Below, in pieces: positions 1,653-27,583 of a stretch of 34,317 bases of DNA (positions within the stretch are counted from its first letter, which is position 1; every line of letters begins with the position of its first letter). The notes under the pieces are model-generated. The model did not search any database. It was not told where the DNA came from and worked only from the letters and a program-made list of their open reading frames with translations. A program made the translations under genes and the position numbers. This DNA is from an uncultured bacterium. GTDB lineage: Bacteria; CAYJRR01. The DNA lies in NCBI GenBank assembly GCA_964372275.1, contig CAYJRR010000041.1, positions 1 through 34,317 on the forward strand, in the 5' to 3' direction.

Positions 1653-2402
1653 TCAGGAACCGCTGCCAGCGGCGCTCTCCGCCAGCTCGGAGGTGGCGCC
1701 GGTCGACCCGAAGTCGACGAGCTCCATCGTCGTGCCGTCGCTGGTGACCGACTTCACCGTCTCCGAGACCGGCACCGAGGGATGCACCCAGGAGGTCCCG
1801 GTGACGGTGATGAAGGCGATCTTCACCGTCGTCTTCGTCTCCAGCGTCTGCTTGAACGTCCCGGCCGGGACGGTGATGTCGGCGCGCGGAGAGTTGGGGT
1901 CGACGTTCCACTGCACCATCGACGCGAAGTTCTTCCCCATCATCATCTTCATCATCGACCCTTCGGGGGCCCGGAGATCGATCGTCTGCACCGGACCGTC
2001 GTCCGCCTTGGTGACGATCTTCTTCATCGCGTCGAGGGCGCTCTGCACCGTGGCGCTCGGGTCGTTGCTCACCTCCGGCACCTTCTCGTAGCAGACCTTG
2101 GCGATGCTGCGCGAACGCGGGTCCTGCCGGACCATCTCCAGCCAGACGCCGCAGTCGTCCTGTGCCACGACCGACATCTTCTCGAAGCCGATCTCCCCCT
2201 TCTTGTTCGTCACCCGGTAGAGCGCCCACTGCCCGACCTTCCAGGGCATCGGCTTCAGCGCCGACGGCGCCGGCGCGTCGTAGGACTTCGACTGCGCCAC
2301 GTGCTTCGACAGGACCGAATCGACCGCCGCCTGGTAGGTCGGCCGGATCTTGGGACCGCAGCCGGCCAACACGATCGTTGCAACGAGGACTGCCTTCTTC
2401 AT
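1653..2402 (-). CDS. Hypothetical lipoprotein (249 aa)
   Basis: Start moved to ATG 2402 (GGGGGAG RBS); signal MKKAVLVATIVLAGC with LAGC lipobox; ITVPAGTF beta motif. Confidence 0.8.
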   Translation of the reverse strand: MKKAVLVATIVLAGCGPKIRPTYQAAVDSVLSKHVAQSKSYDAPAPSALKPMPWKVGQWALYRVTNKKGEIGFEKMSVVAQDDCGVWLEMVRQDPRSRSIAKVCYEKVPEVSNDPSATVQSALDAMKKIVTKADDGPVQTIDLRAPEGSMMKMMMGKNFASMVQWNVDPNSPRADITVPAGTFKQTLETKTTVKIAFITVTGTSWVHPSVPVSETVKSVTSDGTTMELVDFGSTGATSELAESAAGSGS

Positions 2403-2458
2403 CGTGATCTCCCCCTTCGCATTGGAGCGCTGGTCCCGCCGAATACCACCACAATGTC

Positions 2459-2580
2459 TCCCCGTCACCTCCCGACTCGCCCTCCACTCCTCCTTCCACT
2501 CCCCGCTTCTCCTACTCCTTCTCCTCGAATCTCCTCATTCCTCCTACTCCTTCTCCTTTCCGCTACCCCTCGTCCTTCCC
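2459..2580. repeat. Polypyrimidine/polypurine low-complexity tract with a 17-bp direct repeat
   Basis: Mostly C/T on + strand; CTCCTACTCCTTCTCCT at 2509-2525 and 2541-2557. Confidence 0.8.
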
Positions 2581-2613
2581 ACCATCGCCGTCCCGCAGTA
2601 CCGTCGCCCCCCG

Positions 2614-3951
2614 ATGTCGCCCCCCGCGGAACAACTCTTTCTCGCCGACCGCACCTTCCTCCCCGGCACCGACGGCGCCGAGGTTCGTGAAGGCATCGGC
2701 GTCCTCGAGCACAGCGGCGATATCGCCGCCGTGGGCCCGGCCGGCGAGCTGCGCCGCGCGCACCCCGACGCCGTGGCGGTCCCCCTCCCCGGCAAGGCGC
2801 TGCTCCCCGGCACCGTCTCCACCCACACCCACACCTTCCAATACCTGGTGCGCGGGTTCGGCGACGACCTCGACTTCTTCGACTGGCGCGAGAAGGGGAT
2901 CTATCGCTATTCGCTCAAGCTCGACGCCGACGGGATCCACACCGGCGCGCTGCTCGCCTTCGCGGAGCTGTTGCGCCACGGCACCACCACCGCCGTCGAC
3001 TTCTTCTACCTGAACGACCAGGCCAACGAGAACGCCGAGGCGGTGATCCAGGCTGCGCGCGACGTCGGGATCCGCGTGGTTCTCGCCCGCTGCCTCTACG
3101 ACTGGGACGGCGCTCCGGCGAAGTATCGGGAGACGGTCCCCGTCGCCCGCCGGAACGTCGAGGCGCTGGTCGACAAGTACCGCCACGACCGCATGGCGCA
3201 GGCGCACCCCGCCCCCCACTCCCCGCACGGCGCGTCGGCCGAGATGATCCGCGCCGGCGCCGAGATCGCCCGCGACCGCCGCGTGCCGCTGCACATCCAC
3301 GTCGCCGAGGGCCGCTACGAGGTCGAGGAGACGGTGGCGAAGCACCGGCTCACACCGATGCGCTGGCTCGCGTCGCTCGGCGTGCTCGACGCCCGATGCC
3401 TCGCCGTCCACGGCGTCTGGCTCGACGACGGCGAGCTCGACCTCTTGAAGGAGCGCGGCGCCGCCCTCTCCTACAACCCCTCGTCGAACATGTTCCTCGG
3501 CGACGGGATCACCCCGATCCCGAAGTGGATCGCGCGCGGCATCCCCGTGACCCTCGGCGTCGACGGCGGCTGCAGCAACAACCAGGCCTCGATCTTCGGC
3601 GAGATGCGAACCTGCGCCCTGCTCCAGAAGGTGAACGCGCTGGACGCCCGCGCCGTCACCGCCGAGCAGGTCTTCGCCATGGGCACCTCCAACGCCGCCG
3701 GCGCGTTGGGCCTCCCGATCGGCTCGATCGCCCCCGGCCGGCGCGCCGACTTCGTCACCCTCGACCTCGCCGACCTGTCGCTGCTCCCCGCCCAGCAACT
3801 GCGGAAGAACGTCGTCTACGCCCAGTCCGCCAAAGCGGTGCGCGACGTCTTCGTCGACGGCCGGCGGGTGGTGGCGGAGGGACGGCTGACGTCGATGGAG
3901 GAAGGCGCCATCGCCGAACGGGTCGCTCGGCTGACGGCGGGCTGGACCTGA
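2614..3951 (+). CDS. Metal-dependent amidohydrolase/deaminase (MTA/SAH deaminase- or HutF-like)
   Basis: HTH metal motif (STHTHTFQ), APHSPH, HIHVAE, AVHGVW, LGVDG, GSIAPGRRADFV. Start at ATG 2614; the upstream in-frame extension is only the low-complexity tract. Confidence 0.85.
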   Translation: MSPPAEQLFLADRTFLPGTDGAEVREGIGVLEHSGDIAAVGPAGELRRAHPDAVAVPLPGKALLPGTVSTHTHTFQYLVRGFGDDLDFFDWREKGIYRYSLKLDADGIHTGALLAFAELLRHGTTTAVDFFYLNDQANENAEAVIQAARDVGIRVVLARCLYDWDGAPAKYRETVPVARRNVEALVDKYRHDRMAQAHPAPHSPHGASAEMIRAGAEIARDRRVPLHIHVAEGRYEVEETVAKHRLTPMRWLASLGVLDARCLAVHGVWLDDGELDLLKERGAALSYNPSSNMFLGDGITPIPKWIARGIPVTLGVDGGCSNNQASIFGEMRTCALLQKVNALDARAVTAEQVFAMGTSNAAGALGLPIGSIAPGRRADFVTLDLADLSLLPAQQLRKNVVYAQSAKAVRDVFVDGRRVVAEGRLTSMEEGAIAERVARLTAGWT

Positions 3952-4041: not shown

Positions 4042-5208
4042 TCAGAAGAGCCGGCCTTGCTTGAGAAGCGCGCAGAATGCGGCAACCGGCAGGACCTCGA
4101 TGCCGTCTGGGAGCCGCATCTCGTCGCGGCCCGGATGGACCAGGATCCTCCGCCTCAGTCCGGACAGCGGCTCGATCGCCTTCAGGCCCTTGATCCAATC
4201 GGCGCGGAACCGGCGGCCGGATTTCGCCTCGATCGCCACGAACGACCGGCCCTTCTTCAGCAGGAAATCGACCTCGATTCCTTTCGCCTCGGTAGGGGAC
4301 CAGTAGTACATCTCGTCGAACAGATCCCGGTAGCTCCGATAGGCGCGAAGAATCTGGGCGGTCCATGCTTCGAACAGCGCCCCCTGTTCTTCTCCGGCGA
4401 CGGGTCCGAAGTCGCCTCTGGCGGCACGCGCGATACCGTTGTCGGCCCAATACAGCTTCGGATGCCTGCGCTCGCGCAGGCGGAGCTTGGCCTCGAAGCC
4501 GGGGAGCTCGAAGGCGAGCAGGGTGTCTTTCAGGATCTCGACGTACGAGGCGACCGTGGTCCGTTCGACGCCGCACTCCCGCGCAATCGACGAGACGCTC
4601 AGGATCTGACCGTTCAGGAGACCGGCGACGGGGAGGAACCGGACGAATCCCCCCAGGTTCCGGACGAGCGCCTCGGCCTGGATCTCCTCCTTCAGATAGG
4701 TCTGGACGTAGGTCTTCAGGCGCAGCTTTCGCTCCGACGGATCGCTGGCGACCACCAGGGGAAGCGTTCCCGACTCCAGCGCCCGTTGCAGGTCGAAGTC
4801 CGCCCCCATCTCCTCGGGGACGAGCGGCAGCATCTCGCGGAGCAGCGCCCGCCCCGCCAGGAGGTTTGCTCCGCCGCGCCTGAGTTTCCGCGCGCTGGAG
4901 CCGGTAAGGATGAACCGTAGTTTCCTCGTCTCGAGGAGCCGGTGAACGTCGTTCAGAAGGTTGGGGAGCCGCTGAATCTCGTCCACGAAGATCCACGCTC
5001 CGGGAGAGGCCATCCGCTCCACGAGTCCGGAGAAAACGGCGGGATCGGCGAGAATCCGCTGATAGAGGCCCTCGTCGAGAAGATCGATCCGCGGGGCTTC
5101 GGTGAACTCCCTTCCGACCCAGGTGCTCTTCCCCGACCCACGGACGCCGAACAGGAAGAACGAGCTTTTCGGGCGCTCCAGCATCCGGCGGTAGGAGACG
5201 TACGCCAT
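4042..5208 (-). CDS. AAA+ ATPase (AAA_14) with HTH and DUF4143 domain
   Basis: Walker A GVRGSGKST, Walker B IFVDEIQ, ILTGSS, LAGRA, KLYWADNG and C-terminal EVDFLL...AIEAK; start at ATG 5208. Confidence 0.9.
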   Translation of the reverse strand: MAYVSYRRMLERPKSSFFLFGVRGSGKSTWVGREFTEAPRIDLLDEGLYQRILADPAVFSGLVERMASPGAWIFVDEIQRLPNLLNDVHRLLETRKLRFILTGSSARKLRRGGANLLAGRALLREMLPLVPEEMGADFDLQRALESGTLPLVVASDPSERKLRLKTYVQTYLKEEIQAEALVRNLGGFVRFLPVAGLLNGQILSVSSIARECGVERTTVASYVEILKDTLLAFELPGFEAKLRLRERRHPKLYWADNGIARAARGDFGPVAGEEQGALFEAWTAQILRAYRSYRDLFDEMYYWSPTEAKGIEVDFLLKKGRSFVAIEAKSGRRFRADWIKGLKAIEPLSGLRRRILVHPGRDEMRLPDGIEVLPVAAFCALLKQGRLF

Positions 5209-5212
5209 GGCT

Positions 5213-5249
5213 GATCTCATATTTCGTCGAAAATTGAGATCGATGTCAA
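5213..5249 (-). promoter_or_regulatory. TTGACA -35 element and 29-bp imperfect palindrome (operator-like) upstream of the AAA/DUF4143 gene
   Basis: TTGACA on - strand at 5244-5249; GATCTCATATTTCG-T-CGAAAATTGAGATC at 5213-5241 (12 of 14 arm positions symmetric). The -10 element is weak. Confidence 0.55.
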
Positions 5250-5432
5250 CGAGCATCGATCGTGGATCGGCGCCAGACTGCGGCACGGATCGGATCGGCC
5301 TCGGCCGGTTCGGTCGTCGTCCTTCCAGTAAGGACAAGATGTCGAGAAAACGGTCGTCCACGAAGGACAAGGTTCAAACGCGAGGGGAGTCGGGTCCCCG
5401 CAACCCGGGAACTGCGCCGGCCCGGGGTTCGC

Positions 5433-5461
5433 TTGACGGCCGGGGGGCCGGCGCGTAGCAT
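5433..5461 (+). promoter_or_regulatory. Putative sigma70 promoter of the phosphonate operon
   Basis: TTGACG (5433-5438), 17-bp spacer, TAGCAT (5456-5461), about 50 bp before ATG 5511. Confidence 0.65.
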
Positions 5462-5510
5462 GCCCGGCCGCCCGACGTCCCCCTGAAGTGGCCGAAGGGC
5501 GCGAAGAGAC

Positions 5511-6704
5511 ATGGGAATTCTCCATCGATTCTGGGGGCCTTGGGCGTCGTTGATGCAGATTCGGCGGCTGCCGGCCTCGGACCGCGAGATCGTCTTCTAT
5601 TCGGAGGGGCGGTCGGATTGGCCGCACTTGGGGCCGATCGTTCGGGAGCTCGCGGCGGGGGGGCGGCGGGTCTGTTACGTGTCCTCCGAGGAGAGTGATC
5701 CGGGGCTTTCGCTCGGGGATCCGAACGTGGTCGGGTTCCACGTCGGGGCCGACTCGGCGCGAACGGCTTTTTTCAAGACGGTCGAGGCGAAGGTCGTGGT
5801 GATGACGATGCCCGACCTGGAGACCTTTTTCCTGAAGCGCTCGGTGCATCCGGCGCACTACGTCTACGTCTTCCACGCCATCGTCTCGAGCCACCGCATC
5901 TACCGGAAGGGGGCGTTCGACGCCTACGACACGGTGCTCGCGGTCGGACCCCACCACGTCGAGGAGATCCGCCGCACCGAGGCGGTCTACGGCTTGAGGC
6001 CCAAGGCGATCGTCGAGCACGGCTGCGCGCGGCTCGACGAAGTGATTCGCGCGGCGGCGGCGCGGCCGGCGTTCGTCCCCTCGCCGGGTCCGGCCAAGAA
6101 GGTGCTGCTCGCGCCGTCGTGGGGGGAGTGCTCCTTTGCCGAGCGGCCGTACGGGGGCGACCTGATCGACCTCCTGCTCCGCGCCGGGCACTCCGTCGTG
6201 CTGCGGCTCCACCCGATGACGGTGCGCCGTCTCCCCAAGCTCGGGCCCTCGATGGAGAGCCGCTTCGCGGGACGACCGGGGTTCCGCGTCGAGACCGACA
6301 TGAGCGCGCAGGAGTCGCTGCAGACCTCCGACCTGATGATCAGCGACTGGTCGGGAGCGGCGTTCGACTACGGGTTCGGTCTCCTGCGCCCGGTGCTGTT
6401 CGTCGACACCCCGACGAAGGTGAACAACCCCGAATGGCAACGGCTGGGGATCGCGCCGCTCGAAGAGAAGGTGCGGCGGGAGATCGGCGACGTTCTCGAT
6501 CCCGGGGAGCTGGCGCGGGCGCCGGAGAAGGTCGCGGCCTTGACCGCCGATCCGACCGCCTTCGCGCAGCGGCTCCGAGCGGCGCGCGAGCGCTGGGTCT
6601 TTCATGTCGGCCGCAGCGCGCCGGTGGCGGCCGCCCACATCGCGGGGCTTTGCAGCCCCGGAGACGAGCGGATGGCACCGCTCCAGGAAGCGAAGGCGAG
6701 ATGA
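5511..6704 (+). CDS. CDP-glycerol glycerophosphotransferase (TagF/TagB-like) family protein; putative phosphonyl transferase
   Basis: VLLAPSW, LRLHP and [15 protein letters not shown]...PVLF family motifs; stop overlaps the pepM start (ATGA). Confidence 0.8.
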
Positions 6705-8362
6705 GCACGAAGAAGAAGACGGCGGCGCTGCGCGAGATCCTCACCGGCAGGGGTGCGGGGAGTTCCCCGCAGGAGCCCGAACGGGCGGACAAGCGCCTGC
6801 GATTCCTGATGGAGGTCCACAACGGGCTCTCCGCCAAGATCGCCGAGGAGGCGGGGTTCGAGGGGTTGTGGGGAAGCGGACTGTCGATCTCCGCCTCGAT
6901 GGGCGTGCGCGACAACAACGAGATGAGCTGGACGCAGGTCCTCGAGCTGCTCGAGTTCGTGACCGACGCGGTGAAGATCCCACTGCTCCTCGACGGCGAC
7001 ACCGGTTACGGCAACTTCAACAACATGCGGCGGCTGGTGCAGAAGCTCGAGGCGCGCGACGTCGCCGGCGTCTGCATCGAGGACAAGCTCTTCCCCAAGA
7101 CCAACAGCTTCCTCGGCGAGAACCAGCCGCTCGCCGACATGGACGAGTTCTGCGGCAAGATCAAGGCGGGGAAGGACGCGCAGAGCGACGACGCCTTCTC
7201 GATCGTCGCCCGCGTCGAGGCGCTGATCGCCGGATGGGGCCTGGCGGAGGCCTTGAAACGCGCCGAGGCCTACCGGCGCGCCGGGGCCGACGCGATCCTG
7301 ATCCACAGCAAGCACTCCAAGCCGGACGAGATCCTCGCCTTCAAGAAGGAGTGGGGGGACCGCAGCCCGGTGGTGATCGTCCCCACCAAGTACTACTCGA
7401 CGCCGACGCAGGTGTTCCGCGACGCCGGGATCGACGTGGTGATCTGGGCCAACCACCTGATGCGCAGCTCGCTCACCGCGATGCAGGAGACGGCGAAGCA
7501 GATCAAGCGCGAGGAGAGCTTGATCGACGTCGAGGGCCGGATCGTCGGCGTCAACGAGGTCTTCCGCCTGCAAGGGGCCGGGGAGCTGGAGGAGGCGGAG
7601 CGCCGCTACCTTCCGGCCAAGCAGGAGTCGCCGCAGGCGCTGATCCTCGCCGCCGGACGCGGCAAGGAGCTGGGGGTCCTCACCGAGGACCGCCCCAAGG
7701 CGATGGTCGAGATCGCCGGCAAGCCGCTCCTGGAGCGGACGGTGGAGACGCTGAACGCGATCGGCATCAACGACATCACCGTCGTGCGCGGCTGGAAGAA
7801 GGAGGCGCTCAAGCTTCCGAACCTGAAGTTCGTCGACAACGACGAGCACGAGACGACGCAGGAGGCGTTCTCGCTCTTCAAGGGGATCGAGAAGCTCGTA
7901 GGGCCCGTGCTGATGGGCTACGGCGACGTGCTGTTCCAAAAGTTCATCCCGATGCACCTGTTCGAGTCGGACGCCGACTTCTGCATCGCGGTCGACTCGG
8001 AGGCGTCGTCCAGCCCCGGCCAGGACCGCTACCGGGACCGCGTCGCCTGCGACCGGCCGTTCCACTGGAACCGCTTCGACCAGAAGGCGTACCTGACGAA
8101 GATGAGCGCCGGTCTCCCCCAGGCCGAAACCCACGGCGAGTGGATCGGGCTCTTGAAGATGTCCGCCGCGGGGCTTGCGCAGCTCAAGTCGATCGGAAAG
8201 GAGATCGCCGGCGGCGCTTCGTTCCGAACGATGCGAATGGCCGACCTGTTCACCGTCCTCCTGGAGCGCGGGAAGAAGGTGGAGGTGGTCTACGTCCGCG
8301 GGCACTGGCTGGACGTCGACGACCTGCACGACGTCGTCGCGGCGGCGGGCCAATACCGATGA
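6701..8362 (+). CDS. pepM: Phosphoenolpyruvate mutase fused to C-terminal nucleotidyltransferase (PntC/LicC-like)
   Basis: Diagnostic EDKxxxxxNS ([10 protein letters not shown]), HNGLSA, DGDTGYG, VPTKY; C-terminal ILAAGRG...DRPKAM and WLDVD. True start ATG 6701. Confidence 0.96.
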
Positions 8363-10599
8363 AAGCGATCGTCATCGCCGCGGGGCTCGGAAGCCGGCTC
8401 CTCCACCTCACCAAGGACCGGCCGAAGTGCACGCTGACGATTCAGGGGGTCTCGCTGCTCGACAATCAGCTCGCCATCTTCCGCGAACTGGGAATCCACG
8501 ACGTCACGATCGTCACCGGCTGGCACGCGGAGATGCTGCAACGTCCCGGGGTGAAGACGGTCTTCAACGACGACTTTCGGAACAACAACATCCTCTTCTC
8601 GCTGATGTACGCGGAGAAGGAGCTCGACGACGAGGTGATCGTCACCTACTCCGACATCCACTACGAAAAGGCGGTGGTCGAGGCGCTGCAGGCGGCGACC
8701 GGCGACTTCCTGGCGGTGGTGGATGCCGACTGGAAGAAGACCTACGTCGGGCGCGCCGACCATCCGGTGGAGCAGGCGGAGAAGGTGGTGATCGCCGGAT
8801 CCGAGATCCGGAAGATCGGAAAACACCTGACCGAGGCCGAGGCGCACGGCGAGTTCATCGGGTTGGTGCGGTTCTCCAAGAAGGGGGCGCTCGCCTTCCG
8901 CGAGGTGTTCGCCGACGTGAAGGCGAAGCATGCCGGAGGTTCGTTCCAGGCGGCGAAGGAGCTGAAGAAGGCCTACCTTACCGACATGCTCCAGGAGCTG
9001 ATCGACCGCGGGCACGCGGTGGCGCCGGTGACGATTCACGGCGGCTGGCGCGAGATCGACACCCTCGAAGATTTCCGGAAGGCGGGGGGCGACGTGCCGT
9101 CGGACATCCGCAGCGGACAGAACTTTCGCGCGATCCTCAACGACCTGAAGCGGCGTCCCGAGGACGCCGGACTGCTCNNNNNNNNNNCCTATTTTTCCGG
9201 TCGGGGGGGGGGCCCCGCGCCGCCGCCCCCCCGCCCCCCACACCCCCCCCCCGCCCCCCCCCCCCCCCTCCCGCGCCGCCCCCGGCGCGCCGCGGCCGAG
9301 CTCGGCGTTCCGCTCGCCGAGATCGAGGCGGTGATCGCCGGGAAGCGCCCCCTCCCCTCCGCGATCGTCGACAAGGCGGTCGCGGCCTGGCCGGTCAGCC
9401 CCCGCGACTTCTACCTCCTCGAGGACGACGCCCCGACCGGGGTGCGGATCTTCCGCGAAGCCGACTCGAAACGGAGCCGGCGCGTCATGCAGCGCGCCGG
9501 GAAGGACTACTACGAGTACCGCGACACCGCGATGAGCGCCGGCTCTCAGTTCCGCCCCGAATGGATCCAGGAGCTTTGCGTCGTCGACGACGACGACCCG
9601 GAGAACCCGGCCGTCCAGTGGAACAACGGTCACTTCCTCCACCAGTTCACCTACTTCGTCGGACCGGTGAACTTCTACTGGCGCGGACCCGATGGACGGA
9701 AGCGCGTCTCGGTGATGGAGACCGGCGGCTCGATGTACATCACCCCGTTCGTGCCGCACTCGTTCGCGTCGCGGCGAAACGAGCGCGGGGAGTTGGGGCT
9801 GATCCTGGCGCTCACCTACGGCAACCTGCTCGGCGGCGAGACGCGGCAGGAGATCGGCGCCCACGGGGTCGAGCTGGCGTCGCGCCTGGCGCTCGACTTT
9901 TCCGCCCCCGGCGCGGCGCGTGGCGCCCTGATCCGCTTTCACCGCGAGGGGTCGAGCCTCACCAAGGCCGAGCTCGCCCGGCGCGCCGACGTGGCGCCGG
10001 CGCGCATCGACGAATTGGAACGGGGAGCAGAGACCGCGTCCGAGGCCGAGATCCGGCGTCTGGCGGCCGCGCTGCGGGTGAACGTTCGCGACCTGCTGCC
10101 GCCGGAGCCGGAGGAGGCGGTGATCGTGCGCCATCGCAAGGACGCGCCGCGCTGGACCTACCCCGAAGCCGGCAGCAAGCCCGAAACGTCCCCCGCCTAC
10201 GAGATGGTGGAGCTGACGCCGGTGCGAAGCCTCCCCTTCTCCAAGGGGCTCGAGGTGAACGTCCTTTCCGGCGGAACCGCGGCCCCCGACCTGCAGGTCG
10301 GACTGCAGCAGTACGTCTACAACGTCGGCTCCACGCCGGTGGCCCTCTCCTGGCGGAACGGCGGCGAGTCGTACGAAACGACGCTTGGCCCGGACGACTC
10401 CGCGTATCTGAAGGCGTGCGTCCCGCACGCCTACCGCGGCGAAGGGGGACGCCTGCTGGTGCTGCGCATCGGCTCGCGGCTGGGAAGCGACGGACTGATG
10501 GAGCTGTCGCGGATCGCGGCAGCGGGTGCGGGCAATTTGGAGCGCATCGTGGGTGATGCAGGACAGTGGTTCGACAAAGCTGGGCGGCGGAATGTGTAG
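8359..10599 (+). CDS. mpnS: Fusion of nucleotidyltransferase (about 8359-9090) and methylphosphonate synthase-type Fe(II) dioxygenase (about 9094-10599), interrupted by an assembly gap
   Basis: N-terminus IAAGLGSRL...DRPK, YLTD, WREIDT; C-terminus [60 protein letters not shown], closely resembling Nitrosopumilus MPnS as I recall it. ATGA overlap with pepM. Confidence 0.88.
9169..9291. other. Scaffold gap (10 N at 9178-9187) with flanking low-complexity C-rich sequence, probably artefactual
   Basis: Ns and C/G homopolymer runs; removing these 123 bp restores KRRPEDAAAELGV. Confidence 0.8.
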
Positions 10600-10605
10600 G
10601 TTCGC

Positions 10606-11751
10606 ATGATCCAAGCGCCCGACTTTTTGGAACCCGCTTTGGCGCGGGGCTTCACCTTCTGGTCGGGTGTCCCCTGCTCGTTCCTCACCCCCTTCATCAA
10701 CTACGTCCTCTCCCGCGACGACCTCGACTACGTCGGGGCGGCGAGTGAAGGGGAGGCGCTGGGGATCGCCGCGGGGGCGCACCTCGCGGGGCGGAAGACG
10801 GTCGTCATCTGCCAGAACTCGGGGCTCGGCAACGCGGTCAATCCGCTGACCTCGCTCAACCACATCTTCCGGATTCCGACCCTCTTCATCACCACCCATC
10901 GCGGCGCGCCGGGTCTCAAGGACGAGCCGCAGCACGCGCTGATGGGGCAGATCACCGGGGAGCTGCTCACCACGATGCAGATCCCGTGGGAGGTCTTTCC
11001 CGACGACGCCGCGGCCGTCGTCCCTGCGCTCGAGCGCGCGGAGCGGTCGATGGCCGAAACCGGGCGTCCGTTCGCCTTCGTCATGAAGAAGGGGACGGTC
11101 GCCGACTATCCCCTCCGCACGAGGGAACGCCGCGCCGTTCCGCCGATGGCCCAACCGTCGGGGACGTTCACCGCCGCGGTCCGGATGACGCGACTCGACG
11201 CCATCCGCGTGGTGCGCGACGCGGCCGGGCCGGACGTGGCGCTGATCGGCACGACCGGGAAGATCGGCCGCGAGCTCTATGCACTGGGCCATAGCCCGAA
11301 CCAGCTCTACGTCGTCGGCTCGATGGGCTGCGCCTCCGGGATCGGACTGGGCCTCCACCTCGGATCGCGCGGAAAGCGGCGGGTGGTCGTCCTCGACGGC
11401 GACGGCGCGGCGCTGATGAAGATGGGCACGATGGCGACGATCGGACACGCCGCCCCCGCCAAGCTCGTCCACGTGATCGTCGACAACGAGGCCCACGAAT
11501 CGACCGGCGGACAGGCGACCGTCTCCTCGTCGATCGACTTCGCGACGGTCGGCAGCGGCTGCGGCTATCGCCATCTGTGGCGAGTCGACTCGGCAGAAGC
11601 GCTCGCCGCGGCGGTCTCGGCGGCGCTCGAGCGCACCGGCCCCATCCTGGTGCACGTGAAGGTGGGGATCGGCTCCGCCCCCGACCTCGGCCGCCCGGCC
11701 CACACCCCGGTCGAGGTGAAGGAGCAGTTCATGAGCTGGTTCGCCCGGTGA
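10606..11751 (+). CDS. aepY: Phosphonopyruvate decarboxylase (ThDP-dependent)
   Basis: GVPCS, QNSGLGNAVNPLTSL, DEPQH, VGSMGCAS, DGDGAALM, HESTGGQ; pepM operon context. Confidence 0.95.
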   Translation: MIQAPDFLEPALARGFTFWSGVPCSFLTPFINYVLSRDDLDYVGAASEGEALGIAAGAHLAGRKTVVICQNSGLGNAVNPLTSLNHIFRIPTLFITTHRGAPGLKDEPQHALMGQITGELLTTMQIPWEVFPDDAAAVVPALERAERSMAETGRPFAFVMKKGTVADYPLRTRERRAVPPMAQPSGTFTAAVRMTRLDAIRVVRDAAGPDVALIGTTGKIGRELYALGHSPNQLYVVGSMGCASGIGLGLHLGSRGKRRVVVLDGDGAALMKMGTMATIGHAAPAKLVHVIVDNEAHESTGGQATVSSSIDFATVGSGCGYRHLWRVDSAEALAAAVSAALERTGPILVHVKVGIGSAPDLGRPAHTPVEVKEQFMSWFAR

Positions 11752-11758
11752 CGCGATC

Positions 11759-12886
11759 TTGAGGAGCTTCCACAATCCCGTGTCGGTGCGCTTCGGCGCC
11801 GGCGCCCTCGGCGAGCTTCGCGACCTCGCGCGCGGGCGGCGCGCCGTCGTGCTCGCTTCCGAGGGGATCGTCCGTCGCGGGACGCTGGCCGCGGTCGAGT
11901 CGGCGCTCGACGTCACCGGCCGCTTCACCTCGATCGCCCCGAACCCGACCCTCCTCGCCTGTTCCCAGGTCGCGGAGCGCCTCGCGGCCTGCGCGGTCGA
12001 GGTGGTGGTGGCGATCGGCGGCGGGAGCGTCCTCGACACCGCCAAGGCGTTCGCCGCCCAGCGGTCGGCCCCGGACGGTTGGCTGTCGGCGCACCTGCGC
12101 GAGGGCGCACCCTTCCCCGCCGACTTTCGCCCGCCTCCGATCCTCGCCGTCCCGACGACGGCCGGCACCGGAAGCGAGGTGACGATGTGGGGGACGGTCT
12201 GGGACGAGAAGACCGGACGCAAGTATTCGATCTCCCACCCGCGCCTCTATCCGGAGGCAGCCCTCGTCGATCCGACCCTGACGCACACCCTTCCGCCGGC
12301 GACGACGGTGGCGACGGCGCTCGACGCCCTGTCGCACGCGATGGAGGCGATCTGGAACAAGGGCTCGAATCCGGTCTCGGACGGCCTCGCCCTGCGCGCG
12401 ATCGAGGTCGTCCCCGACGCGTTGCCGCGGGTCCTGGCGCAGCCGGCGGACGCCGCGGCGCGAGAGGCGCTGGCCGGCGCCGCGCTCCTCGCGGGCCTCG
12501 CCTCGAGCAACACCCGCACGGCGCTCGCCCACTCGATCTCCTACCCGCTCACCTCCGAGCTCGGCGTGCCGCACGGTCTGGCGTGCAGCCTCACCCTGCC
12601 GGCGATCCTGGAGCGTGTCGACGACGAGAAGCCGGCGCGCGCCGCGCTCATCGCCCGGGCGATCGGCCAGCCGACCCCGCGCGCCGCCGCCGAGGCGCTC
12701 CGCTCCACGTTCCGGGCGGCCGGTGTCGGCGAGGAGCTTCGACGCCGGATCGCCGGCGTCGACGCGCTCGCCGGGCTGCGTGGCTCCCTCATCGCCCCGG
12801 GCCGCGCCGAGAACTGCCTGATTGCCGCCGACGCGCCGGCGGCCGCGGAGATCCTGCGCCGGTCGTACGAAGCCCTCTGCGCCTAG
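11759..12886 (+). CDS. Iron-containing alcohol dehydrogenase, probable phosphonoacetaldehyde reductase
   Basis: GGGSVLDTAK, PTTAGTGSEVT, DALSHAMEAIW, TALAHSISYPLT, HGLAC; follows aepY; TTG start. Confidence 0.88.
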   Translation: MRSFHNPVSVRFGAGALGELRDLARGRRAVVLASEGIVRRGTLAAVESALDVTGRFTSIAPNPTLLACSQVAERLAACAVEVVVAIGGGSVLDTAKAFAAQRSAPDGWLSAHLREGAPFPADFRPPPILAVPTTAGTGSEVTMWGTVWDEKTGRKYSISHPRLYPEAALVDPTLTHTLPPATTVATALDALSHAMEAIWNKGSNPVSDGLALRAIEVVPDALPRVLAQPADAAAREALAGAALLAGLASSNTRTALAHSISYPLTSELGVPHGLACSLTLPAILERVDDEKPARAALIARAIGQPTPRAAAEALRSTFRAAGVGEELRRRIAGVDALAGLRGSLIAPGRAENCLIAADAPAAAEILRRSYEALCA

Positions 12887-12895
12887 ACTGCCCGA

Positions 12896-13669
12896 TCAGT
12901 GCGGCCGTTCGACCGCGAGGAAGCGTTCGAGCATCGCGTTGACCTGGTCGGGGACCAGTGTCATCAGAAAGTGACCACCCCCGACGGTCTGCCCGATCAT
13001 CGCCTGCGGGCACAGCTCCTTGAGCCGTCGATAGTCCGACGGGAACGGCCCGCCGATCGCGAGGAGCGGCACCCTGCATCCCCGGGCTGCGGCCTCGACG
13101 TCATGAGAAAGGAACGCCTCCCACGAGGAGGAGACGACCGATTGCGGAGTCTCGAGCATTCCCGAAACGATCCGCCCCTTCTCGCTCGGGTCATCCGTCG
13201 GCAGGAAGGCGACCTGGTCGGCGAAACCGCGCAGCACGTCCTTCCACCCAGCCGTCTTGAACGCCGGGGCCACCTCCACGAACCCCCTGGCGAGCGGCTC
13301 GGCCAGCCATAGCGCCGCGTCGACGAGGACGATCGCCGAGACCAGGTCTGCGTAGCGGGTACCGACCTCGAGGCCAAGCCCGCCCTGGCTGTGGACGACG
13401 ACGGCTGGTTTGTGCAGCCCGAGTTCTCGGATCGTCCAGGCAATGTCGTCGGCGAATCCCTCGATGGTGTAGCGCTGGTCCGGCTTGTCGCTCTTTCCGT
13501 GACCGCGCCGATCGATCGCCACAACCCGGTGCCGGGCGCGGAAGTACTCCATCTGCGGCCGGAAGTGGGTCCGGTCTCCGCAGAAGCCGTGGACAAAGAG
13601 AAGCGGCGGCGCGCCTGCGCCCGCCTCTTCGTAGTGAAGCTTCACGCCGTTGCGGTCGAGAGTCGGCAT
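12896..13669 (-). CDS. Alpha/beta-fold hydrolase
   Basis: FVHGF, DRRGHGKS, nucleophile elbow VHSQG, C-terminal GGHF; AAGGAG RBS. Confidence 0.9.
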   Translation of the reverse strand: MPTLDRNGVKLHYEEAGAGAPPLLFVHGFCGDRTHFRPQMEYFRARHRVVAIDRRGHGKSDKPDQRYTIEGFADDIAWTIRELGLHKPAVVVHSQGGLGLEVGTRYADLVSAIVLVDAALWLAEPLARGFVEVAPAFKTAGWKDVLRGFADQVAFLPTDDPSEKGRIVSGMLETPQSVVSSSWEAFLSHDVEAAARGCRVPLLAIGGPFPSDYRRLKELCPQAMIGQTVGGGHFLMTLVPDQVNAMLERFLAVERPH

Positions 13670-18818: not shown

Positions 18819-20375
18819 ATGGAAGCATACGGGCGCTATTCGCTGATCCGACGGATCGGCTCCGGGGGAATGGCCGAAGTCTGGAAGGCTCGCGCGGCGG
18901 GTCCGAGCGGCTTCCAGAAGGAGTTTGCGCTCAAGCGCGTGCTTCCTCACCTCACGGAGGATTCCGAGTTCGTCGAGATGTTCATCGACGAGGCCAAGCT
19001 CGTCGCCGGCCTCGTCCATCCGAACATCGTCCAGGTCTTCGATTTCGGCAGCGTCGGAGCGCACGAGTACTACCTCGCGATGGAATACGTCGCCGGCGCC
19101 AACCTCGCGTCGCTGCAAAAGCGACTGGAGGAGGCTCGGGCTCGATGGAGCCCGGACGTGGCCGCCTACATCACGATCGAAGCGTGCCGCGGTCTGGGGT
19201 ACGCACACGAAAAGACCGACACCGACGGCAGGCCGCTCTCCTTGGTGCATCGCGATGTGTCGCCGCAGAACGTGCTCGTCTCCTTCGGCGGCGAGGTGAA
19301 GGTCACCGATTTCGGTATCGCCCGGGCGGCCCACACCACGTCGCGAACCGCGGCCGGACTCGTCCGCGGCAAGCTCGCCTACATGAGCCCGGAGCAGGCC
19401 GCCGGCGAGCCGATCGACGCGCGAAGCGACCTCTTTTCGCTGGGTCTGGTGCTCTATGAGCTGCTTTTTGGCCGCCGACTCTTCCACGGCGGCTCCACCG
19501 AGATCGCGCGGCAGATCCAGGAGTTCACCTCCATCGCGCAGGAGGAGTTGGACGCCCTGCCACCGGCCATTGCCGACGTCCTGGTATCGACGCTCGCGCT
19601 CGATCCGCGGGCGCGCTTCCAACGGGCGGCGGACCTGGAGGCATCGCTGGCCGGCTACCTTGGCGCGCGGTTGGTCGCGGCGCGCCGGGAGCTGTCCGAG
19701 CTGATCTGCCGCCTTTTCGAGGCGGAGCGGGTCCGGAACCGTTCCGACGAGAAGGGACCGGCCGAACGATCCACCGAGATGACGGAGGAGCTCGCGTCGG
19801 AACCGTTCCGCGGTGCGATGGCGATGGCGGCCTCCGGCGAGCCGCATCGGTCGTCCGAGATCGGATCGGACTCGGTGACGTTCCACGTGCCCGGTGTCGT
19901 GATCCGGGAGCAGGCCGGAGGACCGAGCCCGGGTCCGCTTTCCAGGCGACGTGCAGCGGCCGGGGTCGCCGTCGGCGCGGCAGGCGCGTTGTTCGCCGGT
20001 CTCTTCACCCATCGCTGGCTGTCGGAACCCCGTACCCGTCTTCAAGCGACCGAACCGAAGCCGGCACCGACTCCGATTGCGGCCGAGACGACGCCCGGCG
20101 CCCCTTCACAGCGCAGCACGCCGAACCCGTCGACCGGGTACGCGACGCTGGGCGTCGCGGTGCGTCCCTGGGCGGAAGTCTGGATCGACGGAAAGTTGAT
20201 GGCCGCCGAAGCTTCGAACGTCACCTATCGCCTTCGCGCCGGCGTCCACCGCGTCCGCCTGGTCAATCCGGGAAACAACTTCTCCAAGGAGATTCCGGTG
20301 AAGCTCGATCCCGGCGCGAAGGCCACCGTCTCGGCAGACATCCGCACCGGTTCGATCCAGGTGGAGTCGCGATGA
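18819..20375 (+). CDS. Membrane Ser/Thr protein kinase with C-terminal PEGA-like domain
   Basis: IGSGGMAEV, ALK, HRDVSPQN, DFG, YMSPEQ; hydrophobic segment; VRPWAEVWIDG...LRAGVHRVRLVNP. Confidence 0.93.
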   Translation: MEAYGRYSLIRRIGSGGMAEVWKARAAGPSGFQKEFALKRVLPHLTEDSEFVEMFIDEAKLVAGLVHPNIVQVFDFGSVGAHEYYLAMEYVAGANLASLQKRLEEARARWSPDVAAYITIEACRGLGYAHEKTDTDGRPLSLVHRDVSPQNVLVSFGGEVKVTDFGIARAAHTTSRTAAGLVRGKLAYMSPEQAAGEPIDARSDLFSLGLVLYELLFGRRLFHGGSTEIARQIQEFTSIAQEELDALPPAIADVLVSTLALDPRARFQRAADLEASLAGYLGARLVAARRELSELICRLFEAERVRNRSDEKGPAERSTEMTEELASEPFRGAMAMAASGEPHRSSEIGSDSVTFHVPGVVIREQAGGPSPGPLSRRRAAAGVAVGAAGALFAGLFTHRWLSEPRTRLQATEPKPAPTPIAAETTPGAPSQRSTPNPSTGYATLGVAVRPWAEVWIDGKLMAAEASNVTYRLRAGVHRVRLVNPGNNFSKEIPVKLDPGAKATVSADIRTGSIQVESR

Positions 20376-22912: not shown

Positions 22913-24286
22913 TTGGTGCCGATTCCGCCGATCCGTTTCGGTCGGTACACCCTGCTGGCCCCGCTCGCCGCCGGAGGAATGGCCGAGCTGTTCCTCGCCC
23001 ATTGCCCGGATGAACCGGGCTCCGGAATCGTCGTCCTCAAGCGCATCCTCGGACGGCACGCCGCCGACCCCGAATTCATTCGGATGTTCCTTGACGAGGT
23101 CGAGATCGCGCGCGACCTCCGGCACGAGAACATCGTTCCGATCCTCGACTACGGCGAGCTCGACGGCCAGTATTTCCTGACCATGCCCTACGTCGAGGGA
23201 AGCGATCTTTGGGCCTTGATCGAGGCCCTGCCGCGGGTTCGCGCGCGGTTCGGCGTCGCGGAAGCGGTTCACGCGGTCTCTGCCGTTTGCCGCGGACTGG
23301 AGTTCGCCCACTCCCGCACCGACGCGAAGGGGACGTCGCGCGAGATCGTCCACCGGGACATTTCGCCGGAGAACGTGCTCGCCTCGATCGACGGGGAGCT
23401 GATGATTGCCGATTTCGGGATCGCGAAGGCCACCCACCGCAACGCACGGACGCGAGTGGGACTGGTGAAGGGGAAGCGGGCCTACATGAGCCCGGAGATG
23501 GTGTGGGGAAAGCCGGTCGACCGCCGACATGACGTCTTCTCCGCCGGCGTGGTTCTGTGGGAGCTCCTCGCCGGTCGGCCGTTGTTCGAAGGTCGGACGG
23601 ACCAGGAGTTGCTCGCTGCCCGGGTCTTCTCCGAGATCGAGAGACCCAGTCGATTCAATCCGGACGTGACGGAGGATCTCGACACGGCGGTCATGAAGGC
23701 GCTCGCATCCGACCGGGACGACCGATACGCGACGGCCCGGCAGTTCGGCGATGCGCTGGAGGACTGGCTGCGCCGCCGCCGGATCGACGATGGACGTGCG
23801 CGGATCGCTTCGCTGGTGGCGCGCTGCCACGGCGAGACGCTGGCGCGGACGCGGGAGAAGCTCTACTCCGTCCTCACCGAGCATGGGCTGCTACCACCGG
23901 ACGCATCGTCCGCGGCTCGCCTGGGCGAGATCCTCCGAAGCGACGCCGTGGCCGCAACGACGACCGTGGCGCGCGTGGTGCCGAGGCCACGAAGACACGC
24001 GCCGCCATCCCTGACGCAGGCGGCGGCGAAGACGACGATGTTCCAGGGTGCCGGCGGGGGTCCAAAGCTCGAACCATGGGAGCCTCCCTACGAGCCGGGG
24101 TTGACCGGCCTCATCCGCAAGAAGGCCGCGGAGATGACCACCGCCGTGGCCCAGGTGGTGCGACGGAGGCCGGCCGCAGCGCCGAGCGCACGCCCACGCG
24201 GACTGGCGCTGCAATGGTGGCTTCTCGGCGGGCTCTCCATCGGCGCATTGGTGGCCGCGAGCCTCGCCGCGCTCAATCGAATGTAG
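22913..24286 (+). CDS. Ser/Thr protein kinase with C-terminal membrane anchor
   Basis: AAGGMAEL, VLKR, HRDISPEN, DFG, YMSPE; terminal hydrophobic helix. Start TTG 22913 or GTG 22916. Confidence 0.92.
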   Translation: MVPIPPIRFGRYTLLAPLAAGGMAELFLAHCPDEPGSGIVVLKRILGRHAADPEFIRMFLDEVEIARDLRHENIVPILDYGELDGQYFLTMPYVEGSDLWALIEALPRVRARFGVAEAVHAVSAVCRGLEFAHSRTDAKGTSREIVHRDISPENVLASIDGELMIADFGIAKATHRNARTRVGLVKGKRAYMSPEMVWGKPVDRRHDVFSAGVVLWELLAGRPLFEGRTDQELLAARVFSEIERPSRFNPDVTEDLDTAVMKALASDRDDRYATARQFGDALEDWLRRRRIDDGRARIASLVARCHGETLARTREKLYSVLTEHGLLPPDASSAARLGEILRSDAVAATTTVARVVPRPRRHAPPSLTQAAAKTTMFQGAGGGPKLEPWEPPYEPGLTGLIRKKAAEMTTAVAQVVRRRPAAAPSARPRGLALQWWLLGGLSIGALVAASLAALNRM

Positions 24287-26421: not shown

Positions 26422-27303
26422 CTACGGGCTGTAGGAGTAGGCCGGGAAGAAGGTCATCACCATGATGCACATCTCGTCTTCGGTGGTCGTCCCGAAATGG
26501 ATCGGGTGGTCGGTCTCGTTGGTCCAGGTGCACTCGAAACGCCAGCCGTTGTCGGAGTCGGTGCGCAGCGGTGGGTCGAAGGTGTGCGTCGGTGGGGCGT
26601 GCCAGTCGTCGTTGGTGAAGACGCGCTCCGTCCCGGCGTCGGTGAGGTGGTCGATGGTGAACAGCGTCGCCCGCTTGTGGGTGTGCGAGGAGATCGACAG
26701 CACGTTGTAGCCGCCGATTTCGGGGATGGTCATCCCGTCGACGTACCCGGTCGTCATCGGCGGGATCTCGAAGTCGGTGTAGGGGATCAGCACCGTCTGG
26801 ATGTAGTCCTCCACCTCGTCGTGGGGCATCAGCCGGAGCTCGACGTCGACTTCGCCCGTGATCGGCCCGTCCGACGCGTTGGCGTAGTGCGTCTCGAGGA
26901 TCAGCTGCTCCCCGGCGAACAGGGGCAAGGCGAGCCCTTCGGGGAGCGACCATTCGGAGACCGGCGTCTGCGATCCGGTGACGAACAGCCGGTCGTCCAT
27001 CTCGGTGCAGTCGCCGAAACCGTCGGGGAGGTCGTTGTCCGACCGGTAGAGGATGAAGTGGTGACTCCCGGGAGCCATGGTGATCTTCACCGAGGTCACG
27101 TCGAGGGTGACGTCGGACGGGACCTTCATCGTCTTGCACCAGACGTGGTCCTCCCCCTGCGCCACCTCGAACGGCTCGATGCCGAGATGGACGGTCTGCG
27201 GATCGCCGCCGCCGTCGCCCTCCTCGCCGAACGGGCCGTCGTTGCAACCGGCCGCCACGACCGCCAGGAACAGCCCCCCTGCCAACCGGATCGAGCGCTC
27301 CAT
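26422..27303 (-). CDS. Lipoprotein with copper type II ascorbate-dependent monooxygenase-like domain
   Basis: AAGC lipobox; SHHFILY, HYAN, SHTH and DEMC match the PHM/DBH copper-ligand pattern; GGAGG RBS. Confidence 0.8.
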   Translation of the reverse strand: MERSIRLAGGLFLAVVAAGCNDGPFGEEGDGGGDPQTVHLGIEPFEVAQGEDHVWCKTMKVPSDVTLDVTSVKITMAPGSHHFILYRSDNDLPDGFGDCTEMDDRLFVTGSQTPVSEWSLPEGLALPLFAGEQLILETHYANASDGPITGEVDVELRLMPHDEVEDYIQTVLIPYTDFEIPPMTTGYVDGMTIPEIGGYNVLSISSHTHKRATLFTIDHLTDAGTERVFTNDDWHAPPTHTFDPPLRTDSDNGWRFECTWTNETDHPIHFGTTTEDEMCIMVMTFFPAYSYSP

Positions 27304-27485: not shown

Positions 27486-27569
27486 GCGAAAGTGGCGGAA
27501 TTGGTAGACGCGCTAGATTCAGGGTCTAGTGCCCGCAAGGGCGTGGGGGTTCGAGTCCCTTCTTTCGCA
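27486..27569 (+). tRNA. tRNA-Leu (anticodon CAG)
   Basis: Acceptor GCGAAAG/CTTTCGC, D-loop GGAATTGGTAGAC, anticodon arm CTAGA-TTCAGGG-TCTAG, long variable arm GCCC-GCAA-GGGC, TTCGAGT loop; CCA not encoded. Confidence 0.96.
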
Positions 27570-27583
27570 CCCGGTGGTTGGCG

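Follow-up and report, generated by a model that had tools for sequence, protein, structure and literature searches.

A five-gene methylphosphonate operon in an uncultured bacterium

The stretch of DNA analysed here (the window), 34,317 nucleotides long, takes up all of contig C41 (CAYJRR010000041.1). It is part of G000, a metagenome-assembled genome (MAG) of an uncultured bacterium that comprises 4.64 Mb in 225 contigs, with a completeness of 94.6% and a contamination of 1.3%. The window contains a real five-gene methylphosphonate (MPn) operon, which is very probably intact. The five co-oriented genes lie on the + strand and span 5511-12886 (5511-6704, 6701-8362, 8359-10599, 10606-11751 and 11759-12886), so that the whole operon occupies 7.4 kb. 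The features of the locus are as follows.

5433-5461, + strand: sigma-70-like promoter site, TTGACG-17-TAGCAT, ~50 nt ahead of the first start codon; a consensus match only, at 9/12 positions
5511-6704, + strand: gene 1, TagF-like phosphotransferase of the CDP-glycerol glycerophosphotransferase family (PF04464, fold match); candidate phosphonyl transferase
6701-8362, + strand: gene 2, phosphoenolpyruvate (PEP) mutase (PepM) fused to a C-terminal nucleotidyltransferase (NTase), NT1, at residues ~310-553 (TIGR02320, PF12804)
8359-9168, + strand: NT2, LicC-type nucleotidyltransferase domain, the N-terminal part of the NTase-MPnS fusion encoded by gene 3 (PF12804, PDB 1jyk)
9169-9291, no strand: gap inside gene 3, very likely an assembly artefact, made up of 9 unsupported bases, 10 N (9178-9187) and ~100 nt of poly-C/G
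9292-10599, + strand: methylphosphonate synthase (MPnS) domain, with helix-turn-helix (HTH)-cupin twice, the C-terminal part of the fusion (PDB 6b9s)
10606-11751, + strand: gene 4, phosphonopyruvate decarboxylase (Ppd), single-chain, dependent on thiamine pyrophosphate (TIGR03297)
11759-12886, + strand: gene 5, iron-containing alcohol dehydrogenase (Fe-ADH) with a TTG start, probable phosphonoacetaldehyde reductase (best family TIGR03405)

ATGA overlaps join genes 1 and 2 (6701-6704) and genes 2 and 3 (8359-8362), and short gaps of 6 nt (10600-10605) and 7 nt (11752-11758) separate genes 3 and 4 and genes 4 and 5, respectively. The promoter site is the single sigma-70-like site in 5000-13200, compared with a mean of 0.2 sites in shuffled sequence. 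An Rfam search of the whole window returned a tRNA alone, and thus no leader or riboswitch ahead of the operon. These coordinates and the site scan agree with an earlier first-pass annotation, made from the sequence letters, which had described five co-oriented genes with ATGA overlaps or 6-7 bp gaps behind one promoter-like site. Every one of the five genes has a family match. The families named in that annotation are confirmed, with the correction that gene 2 (PepM-NTase) and gene 3 (NTase-MPnS) each encode a fusion and that gene 3 holds the sole run of N in the window.

The operon encodes a predicted route from PEP to methylphosphonate

The PepM part of gene 2 scores 378.8 bits against TIGR02320 (cut-off 319.55) and matches PDB 1m1b with an E-value of 1e-119. 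Its translation contains the EDK-x5-NS catalytic motif, which is given as the motif of PEP mutase in passages of PMC8931226 and PMC6697681. The genome has one PepM gene. Ppd reaches 428.1 bits against TIGR03297 (cut-off 312.5) and covers 360/360 model positions. For gene 5, the best family is TIGR03405 (‘Phn_Fe-ADH’, 337.6 bits), followed by a next family at 176 bits, and the Pfam Fe-ADH model gives 129 bits. For comparison with relatives we used a set of 44 loci from a scan of species-representative genomes, and the position of the alcohol dehydrogenase is kept in 5 syntenic loci. From this conserved place in the cassette, we infer that gene 5 encodes a probable phosphonoacetaldehyde reductase.

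Along its full length, the C-terminal domain of gene 3 matches the MPnS of Nitrosopumilus maritimus (PDB 6b9s) with an E-value of 2.2e-122 and 412.5 bits (query 2-432 on chain 36-455), while its match to HEPD (6b9r), at 275 bits, is 137 bits lower. In the alignment to 6b9s, the diagnostic positions of the domain are His, Gln, Phe, Ile and His. The 2-His-1-Gln triad is present, aligned to H148, Q152 and H190 of 6b9s (numbers counted on the printed alignment). The product-deciding pair beside the Gln consists of Phe in VNFY and Ile in SMYITPF, and HEPD 6b9r has Tyr and Gly in the same columns. The triad together with Phe and Ile is the MPnS criterion given in a passage of PMC11978286, which refers to Born et al. 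2017.

A MAFFT alignment that combined the window with 36 loci and 120 database proteins, and omitted L042 and L043 because of internal stops, has the H-Q-F-I-H pattern in 150/157 sequences. An Arg, a Tyr and an Asn, which we take to be the residues that bind the free phosphonate, are all kept in the printed alignment of the domain. NCBIfam has no model naming the MPnS part and returned HTH matches only. The C-terminal domain of gene 3 is assigned as an MPnS on its family and marker residues, and evidence of the same level carries the enzyme assignments from PEP through 2-hydroxyethylphosphonate (HEP) to MPn. The chemistry put forward in the first-pass annotation, from PepM through Ppd and Fe-ADH to MPnS, is thus borne out by the curated models, with PepM and Ppd above cut-off, and by the MPnS marker residues.

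Other residues occupy the product-deciding positions in some relatives. Tyr and Gly are found in homologues from a Marine Group I archaeon and a Pyrinomonadaceae MAG (L022:3009-4295 and L041:6977-8266) and in P0099, Tyr and Ile in the SAR202/Chloroflexota loci L030, L033 and L034, and Ser and Ile in P0049. The products of these homologues are not readable from homology alone.

The break in mpnS is very likely an assembly artefact

The single run of N in the window (9178-9187) falls within gene 3 and is followed by low-complexity poly-C/G that runs to ~9289. G000 has 56 scaffold gaps, each of 10 or 100 N, and odd sequence likewise sits at the contig ends of others among them. The 10-N gaps at C11:9579- and C18:4044- precede odd low-GC or C-rich sequence unlike the genome, and the adjacent gene calls are to be distrusted.

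Fusions of ~700 aa make up 40 of the best 120 homologues, and all 40 read a conserved motif through the gap site without an insert. In the window, the codons left of 9168 and those from 9292 on fit the two halves of this motif, and the NT2 part has no stop codon before the gap. In three public runs from two studies, contigs break off at 9147 or 9168 and resume at 9290, and none of them includes 9169-9289 with its poly-C/G sequence; the public runs were examined as assembled contigs only, and an uncovered stretch by itself proves nothing. Depths to the left and right of the gap are alike in two runs (6.1 and 5.3 in X2; ~4 and 2.3-5.7 in X3), and in run X1 the stretch 8776-9259 is largely without cover. 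Since 40 fused relatives read through the site, the poly-C/G sequence occurs in no public contig and similar sequence is seen at other gaps of the assembly, we consider it very likely that the break in mpnS arose in assembly or scaffolding.

Two nucleotidyltransferases and a TagF-like protein accompany MPnS

NT2 scores 47.1 bits against PF12804 (cut-off 27). In the PDB it matches LicC 1jyk best (E 1.7e-13), with PntC-AEPT 6pd1 next. It carries the canonical AAGLGSRL...RPK signature, in the G-x-G-x-R-L ... P-K form that we take to be typical of cytidylyltransferases. NT2 is a relative of the single NTase in Nitrosopumilaceae clusters, with 35-39% identity.

NT1 scores 47.6 bits against PF12804 over residues 313-412, and its best PDB match is also LicC 1jyk. 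It reads AAGRGKEL...RPK, with Glu in place of the canonical Arg of G-x-G-x-R-L. This variant (AAGRGKEL or AASRGxEL, with Glu or another residue for Arg) is kept in 10/10 loci examined, namely at 7640-7700 of the window, the N-terminus of NT1, and at the same place in L001, L002, L029, L044, L024, L027, L036, L038 and L042. Because the variant signature is so conserved, NT1 is probably functional but different. Two separate NTase regions are present in 14/44 loci.

Gene 1 scores 29.3 bits against PF04464 (cut-off 22.1). A PDB sequence search with gene 1 gave no match, and NCBIfam has no model for it either. An AlphaFold model built with 9 homologues has a mean pLDDT of 88.1, and its top 10 PDB fold matches are all TagF chains, including 3l7j, 3l7k and 3l7m (best E 2e-13; E ~1e-13, TM 0.54-0.57). 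His122, His128 and His234 (H122, H128 and H234), which may correspond to the catalytic histidines of TagF, are invariant in the alignment of the 9 homologues. Gene 1 is the only PF04464 gene in the genome, and its homologues are linked to mpnS in 10 loci. Together, the LicC-type nucleotidyltransferases and the TagF-like two-Rossmann fold of the first gene support the earlier claim that activation and transfer would follow MPn synthesis.

Related cassettes occur in several phyla

The same five genes, in the same order and with both fusions, are found in Limnocylindria/Chloroflexia (Chloroflexota) soil MAGs (L001-L004 and L029), with 55-79% identity per gene. Partial copies of the cassette are present in L005, L006 and L044, and rearranged cassettes in a Myxococcota MAG (L024), an Acidobacteriota MAG (L027), two Elusimicrobiota MAGs (L036 and L042) and a deltaproteobacterial MAG (L038). 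The first-pass annotation had suggested a search for the same synteny, and the same five-gene order in at least five Chloroflexota MAG loci means that the cassette is not unique to this host. Several relatives are already labelled ‘methylphosphonate synthase’ by JGI, and a search of 40 unrelated genomes returned two weak HTH matches only.

The window MPnS is 66-70% identical to the Limnocylindria/Chloroflexia fusion proteins (P0001-P0042). An MPnS tree of 37 rows, made by a quick method and midpoint-rooted purely for drawing, places the window beside the five Chloroflexota sequences as their sister (SH-aLRT 100, branch 0.31) and not among them. In the flanks, 0/9 proteins tested match any of the 44 related loci.

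In 8 related loci, one or two sulfatase-superfamily genes (~520 aa) stand directly after the cassette. They lie at L001:11825-14988 and L002:12129-13430, and also in L003-L006, L024 and L022.

Taken together, the enzymes are of known families. The variant part is the double fusion, the compactness, the link to a TagF-like gene and the unusual host, and the cassette is not unique to that host.

The operon fits the composition of its host genome

RpoB, located on another contig, is nearest to Cystobacter and a Myxococcales MAG, at 71%. At 71% identity of this one protein, the description of the host as myxobacterium-like is a loose label for a deep lineage. In the genome collection searched, G000 stands alone in its phylum, and all the relatives listed share the domain only. 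G000 may represent a very sparsely sampled lineage. Two Ser/Thr kinase genes in the flank (18819-20372 and 22913-24283) agree with the host being called kinase-rich, and its placement outside the marine archaeal and SAR11 lineages is borne out.

By tetranucleotide (TNF) composition, C41 lies 0.0104 from the genome centroid, an ordinary value that ranks 93rd among 156 contigs. The operon is at a distance of 0.0149, compared with a size-matched median of 0.0151, and both halves of the operon, on either side of the gap, lie within the 5-95% background range. The Limnocylindria loci, at 0.027-0.033, are outside the range of the genome despite a similar GC content. A misjoin of the operon to the host flanks, which the first-pass annotation had kept in view as a possible error, is improbable, since the composition of the contig, the halves and the operon fits the genome in which they lie. 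The window is sister to the Chloroflexota MPnS clade, yet the contig composition fits its own genome, which argues for an old transfer. Our conclusion is that the operon is part of this genome, as an old acquisition.

On the left flank, an amidohydrolase gene, similar to methylthioadenosine/S-adenosylhomocysteine (MTA/SAH) deaminases, lies at 2350-3951. Its relatives at 75-80% are on unnamed contigs, and the named ones, at 54-60%, are from Deltaproteobacteria, Rokubacteria and Binatia. The longest open reading frame (ORF) has 533 aa, whereas the database call has 445 aa and the relatives 431-445 aa, so the true start should be downstream of 2350. A flanking CBS gene has mixed best matches (Anaerolineales 59%, Nannocystis 58%, others), and a contig taxonomy from this gene was dropped as ambiguous. 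At 26425-27303 on the - strand, a 293-aa protein with a copper type II ascorbate-dependent monooxygenase C-terminal domain (PF03712, 29.6 bits) adjoins cystathionine beta-synthase and metallo-beta-lactamase-fold genes. The only RNA gene found in the window is a tRNA-Leu (CAG) at 27486-27571. A tRNA or integrase was considered as an island border and rejected, the sole tRNA being 14.6 kb off.

A proposed pathway and its alternatives

We propose that the intact operon makes MPn, activates it and passes it on, that the break in mpnS is artefactual, and that the cassette was transferred long ago between the ancestors of soil Limnocylindria and the present lineage. We assign this model a probability of roughly 0.78. 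PepM would convert PEP to phosphonopyruvate, Ppd would convert phosphonopyruvate to phosphonoacetaldehyde, and Fe-ADH would reduce phosphonoacetaldehyde to HEP. The MPnS domain is then predicted, from its sequence, to turn HEP and O2 into MPn and CO2. NT2, fused to the N-terminus of MPnS, may convert MPn to cytidine monophosphate (CMP)-linked MPn (CMP-MPn) as MPn forms. The TagF-like enzyme might transfer the methylphosphonyl group from CMP-MPn onto a hydroxyl of an acceptor and release CMP, by analogy with TagF and CDP-glycerol. NT1 may activate a second phosphonate, probably HEP, or back up NT2. No PhnJ was found in the 94.6%-complete genome and no C-P lyase was seen, so the organism would produce MPn rather than consume it. 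As the first-pass annotation suggested, the product might be attached to a surface polymer, but the lack of adjacent glycan or export genes, and of a homologue of the sulfatase-family gene, speaks against a firm claim.

Several observations weigh against this model. Gene 5 falls below the curated cut-off of TIGR03405 (423.7), and the Glu in the NT1 signature leaves the activity of NT1 uncertain. No acceptor, glycan, flippase or lipid genes were found adjoining the operon in its flanks, no homologue of the cassette-linked sulfatase-family gene was found by tblastn anywhere in the genome of the window, and no RNA run containing this stretch is listed. The continuity of mpnS is inferred rather than seen, as no contig in 4 public runs bridges 9168-9290. 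Moreover, two contigs of different runs begin exactly at 9290, and a genuine branch, for instance a strain variant or an insertion, could lie behind this.

The missing bridge and the shared start at 9290 also favour a true interruption of mpnS, by insertion, strain-specific deletion or decay to a pseudogene. The pathway would then end at HEP, which would be activated by NT1 or NT2 and transferred by the TagF-like enzyme to give a HEP-decorated, not an MPn-decorated, product. HEP conjugates are known, an example being the HEP-bearing exopolysaccharide of Stackebrandtia, as cited in a passage of PMC8942020. However, the contigs simply end at 9147, 9168 and 9290, with no foreign letters or loose ends among those listed, their cover is only 2-11x, and breaks are also common at other places in this 1.3 kb. 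The codons to the left and right of the gap match the uninterrupted sequence of all 40 fused relatives, comparable junk occurs at other scaffold gaps of the assembly, and the downstream MPnS part runs over 435 codons without a stop or frameshift, with a GC content at third codon positions of 0.90. We therefore regard a real interruption as quite unlikely. An uninterrupted dioxygenase could in principle work not as MPnS but like HEPD, yielding hydroxymethylphosphonate and formate, or give another product, as the two enzymes are closely related and share one common substrate. Some homologues that rank with MPnS carry the HEPD-type Tyr/Gly (L022, L041 and P0099) or the mixed Tyr/Ile (L030, L033 and L034). 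The window itself has all five MPnS-type positions and the 137-bit preference for MPnS, and downstream genes for hydroxymethylphosphonate use are absent, which makes such a function very improbable.

The operon could also be foreign to the genome, if C41 were mis-binned or chimeric, or if the scaffold joined two organisms at the N gap; its owner would then be a Limnocylindria-like Chloroflexota bacterium of similar GC content. All six domains are nearest to Limnocylindria or Chloroflexia MAGs and the MPnS tree agrees, G000 is a MAG in 225 contigs with 56 scaffold gaps, and the CBS flank gene has mixed best matches. Nevertheless, neither half of the operon contains a break or any N, and both adjoin host-type sequence. 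The TNF values of the contig, the halves and the operon lie inside the range of the genome and those of the Limnocylindria loci outside it, none of the nine flank proteins tested matches a related locus, and the named relatives of the left-flank amidohydrolase are not Chloroflexota. The sister position of the window, on a branch of 0.31 rather than nested within the Chloroflexota clade, points the same way. That the operon is owned by another genome is therefore distinctly improbable.

It is tempting to speculate, from the two fusions, that the pathway operates on nucleotide-tagged phosphonates, as in fosfomycin synthesis. In such a scheme, NT1 would make CMP-HEP, the NT2-MPnS fusion would use the tagged substrate or channel MPn to CMP-MPn, and the TagF-like enzyme would build or decorate a teichoic-acid-like polymer with HEP and MPn esters. 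We consider this scheme unlikely. If it were true, MPn, and hence methane in oxic soils and groundwater, would have a terrestrial source in widespread undescribed soil bacteria (Limnocylindria, this lineage, and some Acidobacteriota and Myxococcota).

Relation to known phosphonate systems

MPn is accepted as the compound from which methane forms in oxygenated water. Published MPnS carriers, as described in a passage of PMC9381506, are mostly marine (Nitrosopumilus, SAR11 and few others). In a lake study, mpnS was not found (PMC10734540); in a groundwater study, 3 samples contained it (PMC11978286). As the window and its relatives show, high-GC bacteria of soil type from several phyla share a conserved mpnS cassette that is complete in itself, and that these cassettes are a possible terrestrial source of MPn is a testable idea. 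The NTase-MPnS fusion provides a direct handle on how MPn gets activated and attached, and the value lies in the whole fused clade rather than in this single MAG. Our literature search, supplements excluded, found no paper on NTase-MPnS fusions, CMP-methylphosphonate, this cassette, or mpnS in soil Chloroflexota or Myxococcota; sequences of this kind may figure in Dataset S1 of PMC9381506 and in the mpnS alignment that accompanies PMC11978286.

The closest described counterpart of the pathway is the cluster of N. maritimus SCM1, which comprises PepM, Ppd, Pdh and MPnS (structures 6b9s and 6b9t) together with a nucleotidyltransferase, sulfatases and glycosyltransferases. The window shares with it the predicted four-step chemistry and the same five MPnS marker residues; its MPnS is ~47-50% identical to that of Nitrosopumilaceae loci, in whose clusters an NT2-like nucleotidyltransferase is also present. 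According to a passage of PMC9381506, the product of N. maritimus is thought to be esterified to an exopolysaccharide. Unlike the N. maritimus cluster, the window has an NTase-MPnS fusion, a second NTase on PepM and a single-chain Ppd, all within a compact five-gene unit. The TagF-like gene is the only transferase at its locus, sulfatase-family and glycosyltransferase genes are missing there, and the host is a high-GC bacterium rather than a marine archaeon. With the Limnocylindria/Chloroflexia cassettes, the window shares an identical gene order and both fusions, but it differs from them in host lineage and flanks and in lacking their sulfatase-family gene or genes after the alcohol dehydrogenase.

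The separate parts of the operon also have counterparts. A fusion of PepM (Ppm) with a PF12804 domain, like that of gene 2 and of Ppm-PntC proteins, is the commonest Ppm architecture, accounting for 33% of Ppm proteins in the survey of Rice et al. 2019 (PMC6697681). In the passages concerned, that survey inventoried Ppm fusions only, and MPnS fusions and MPn activation lie outside its cover. Activation of a phosphonate with CMP before transfer is an established logic, and Fom1 of fosfomycin biosynthesis is described there as cytidylylating HEP. Characterised PntCs prefer 2-aminoethylphosphonate (AEP), whereas the window locus has no AEP transaminase. Gene 1 resembles TagF, the wall teichoic acid polymerase (CDP-glycerol:poly(glycerophosphate) glycerophosphotransferase, PDB 3l7i-3l7m), in its PF04464 domain and best fold match, and would be expected, like TagF, to move a phosphoryl or phosphonyl group off a CMP-linked donor onto a hydroxyl, freeing CMP. 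It differs from TagF in being only 15-17% identical, with a TM of ~0.55, and in that its donor would be a CMP-phosphonate.

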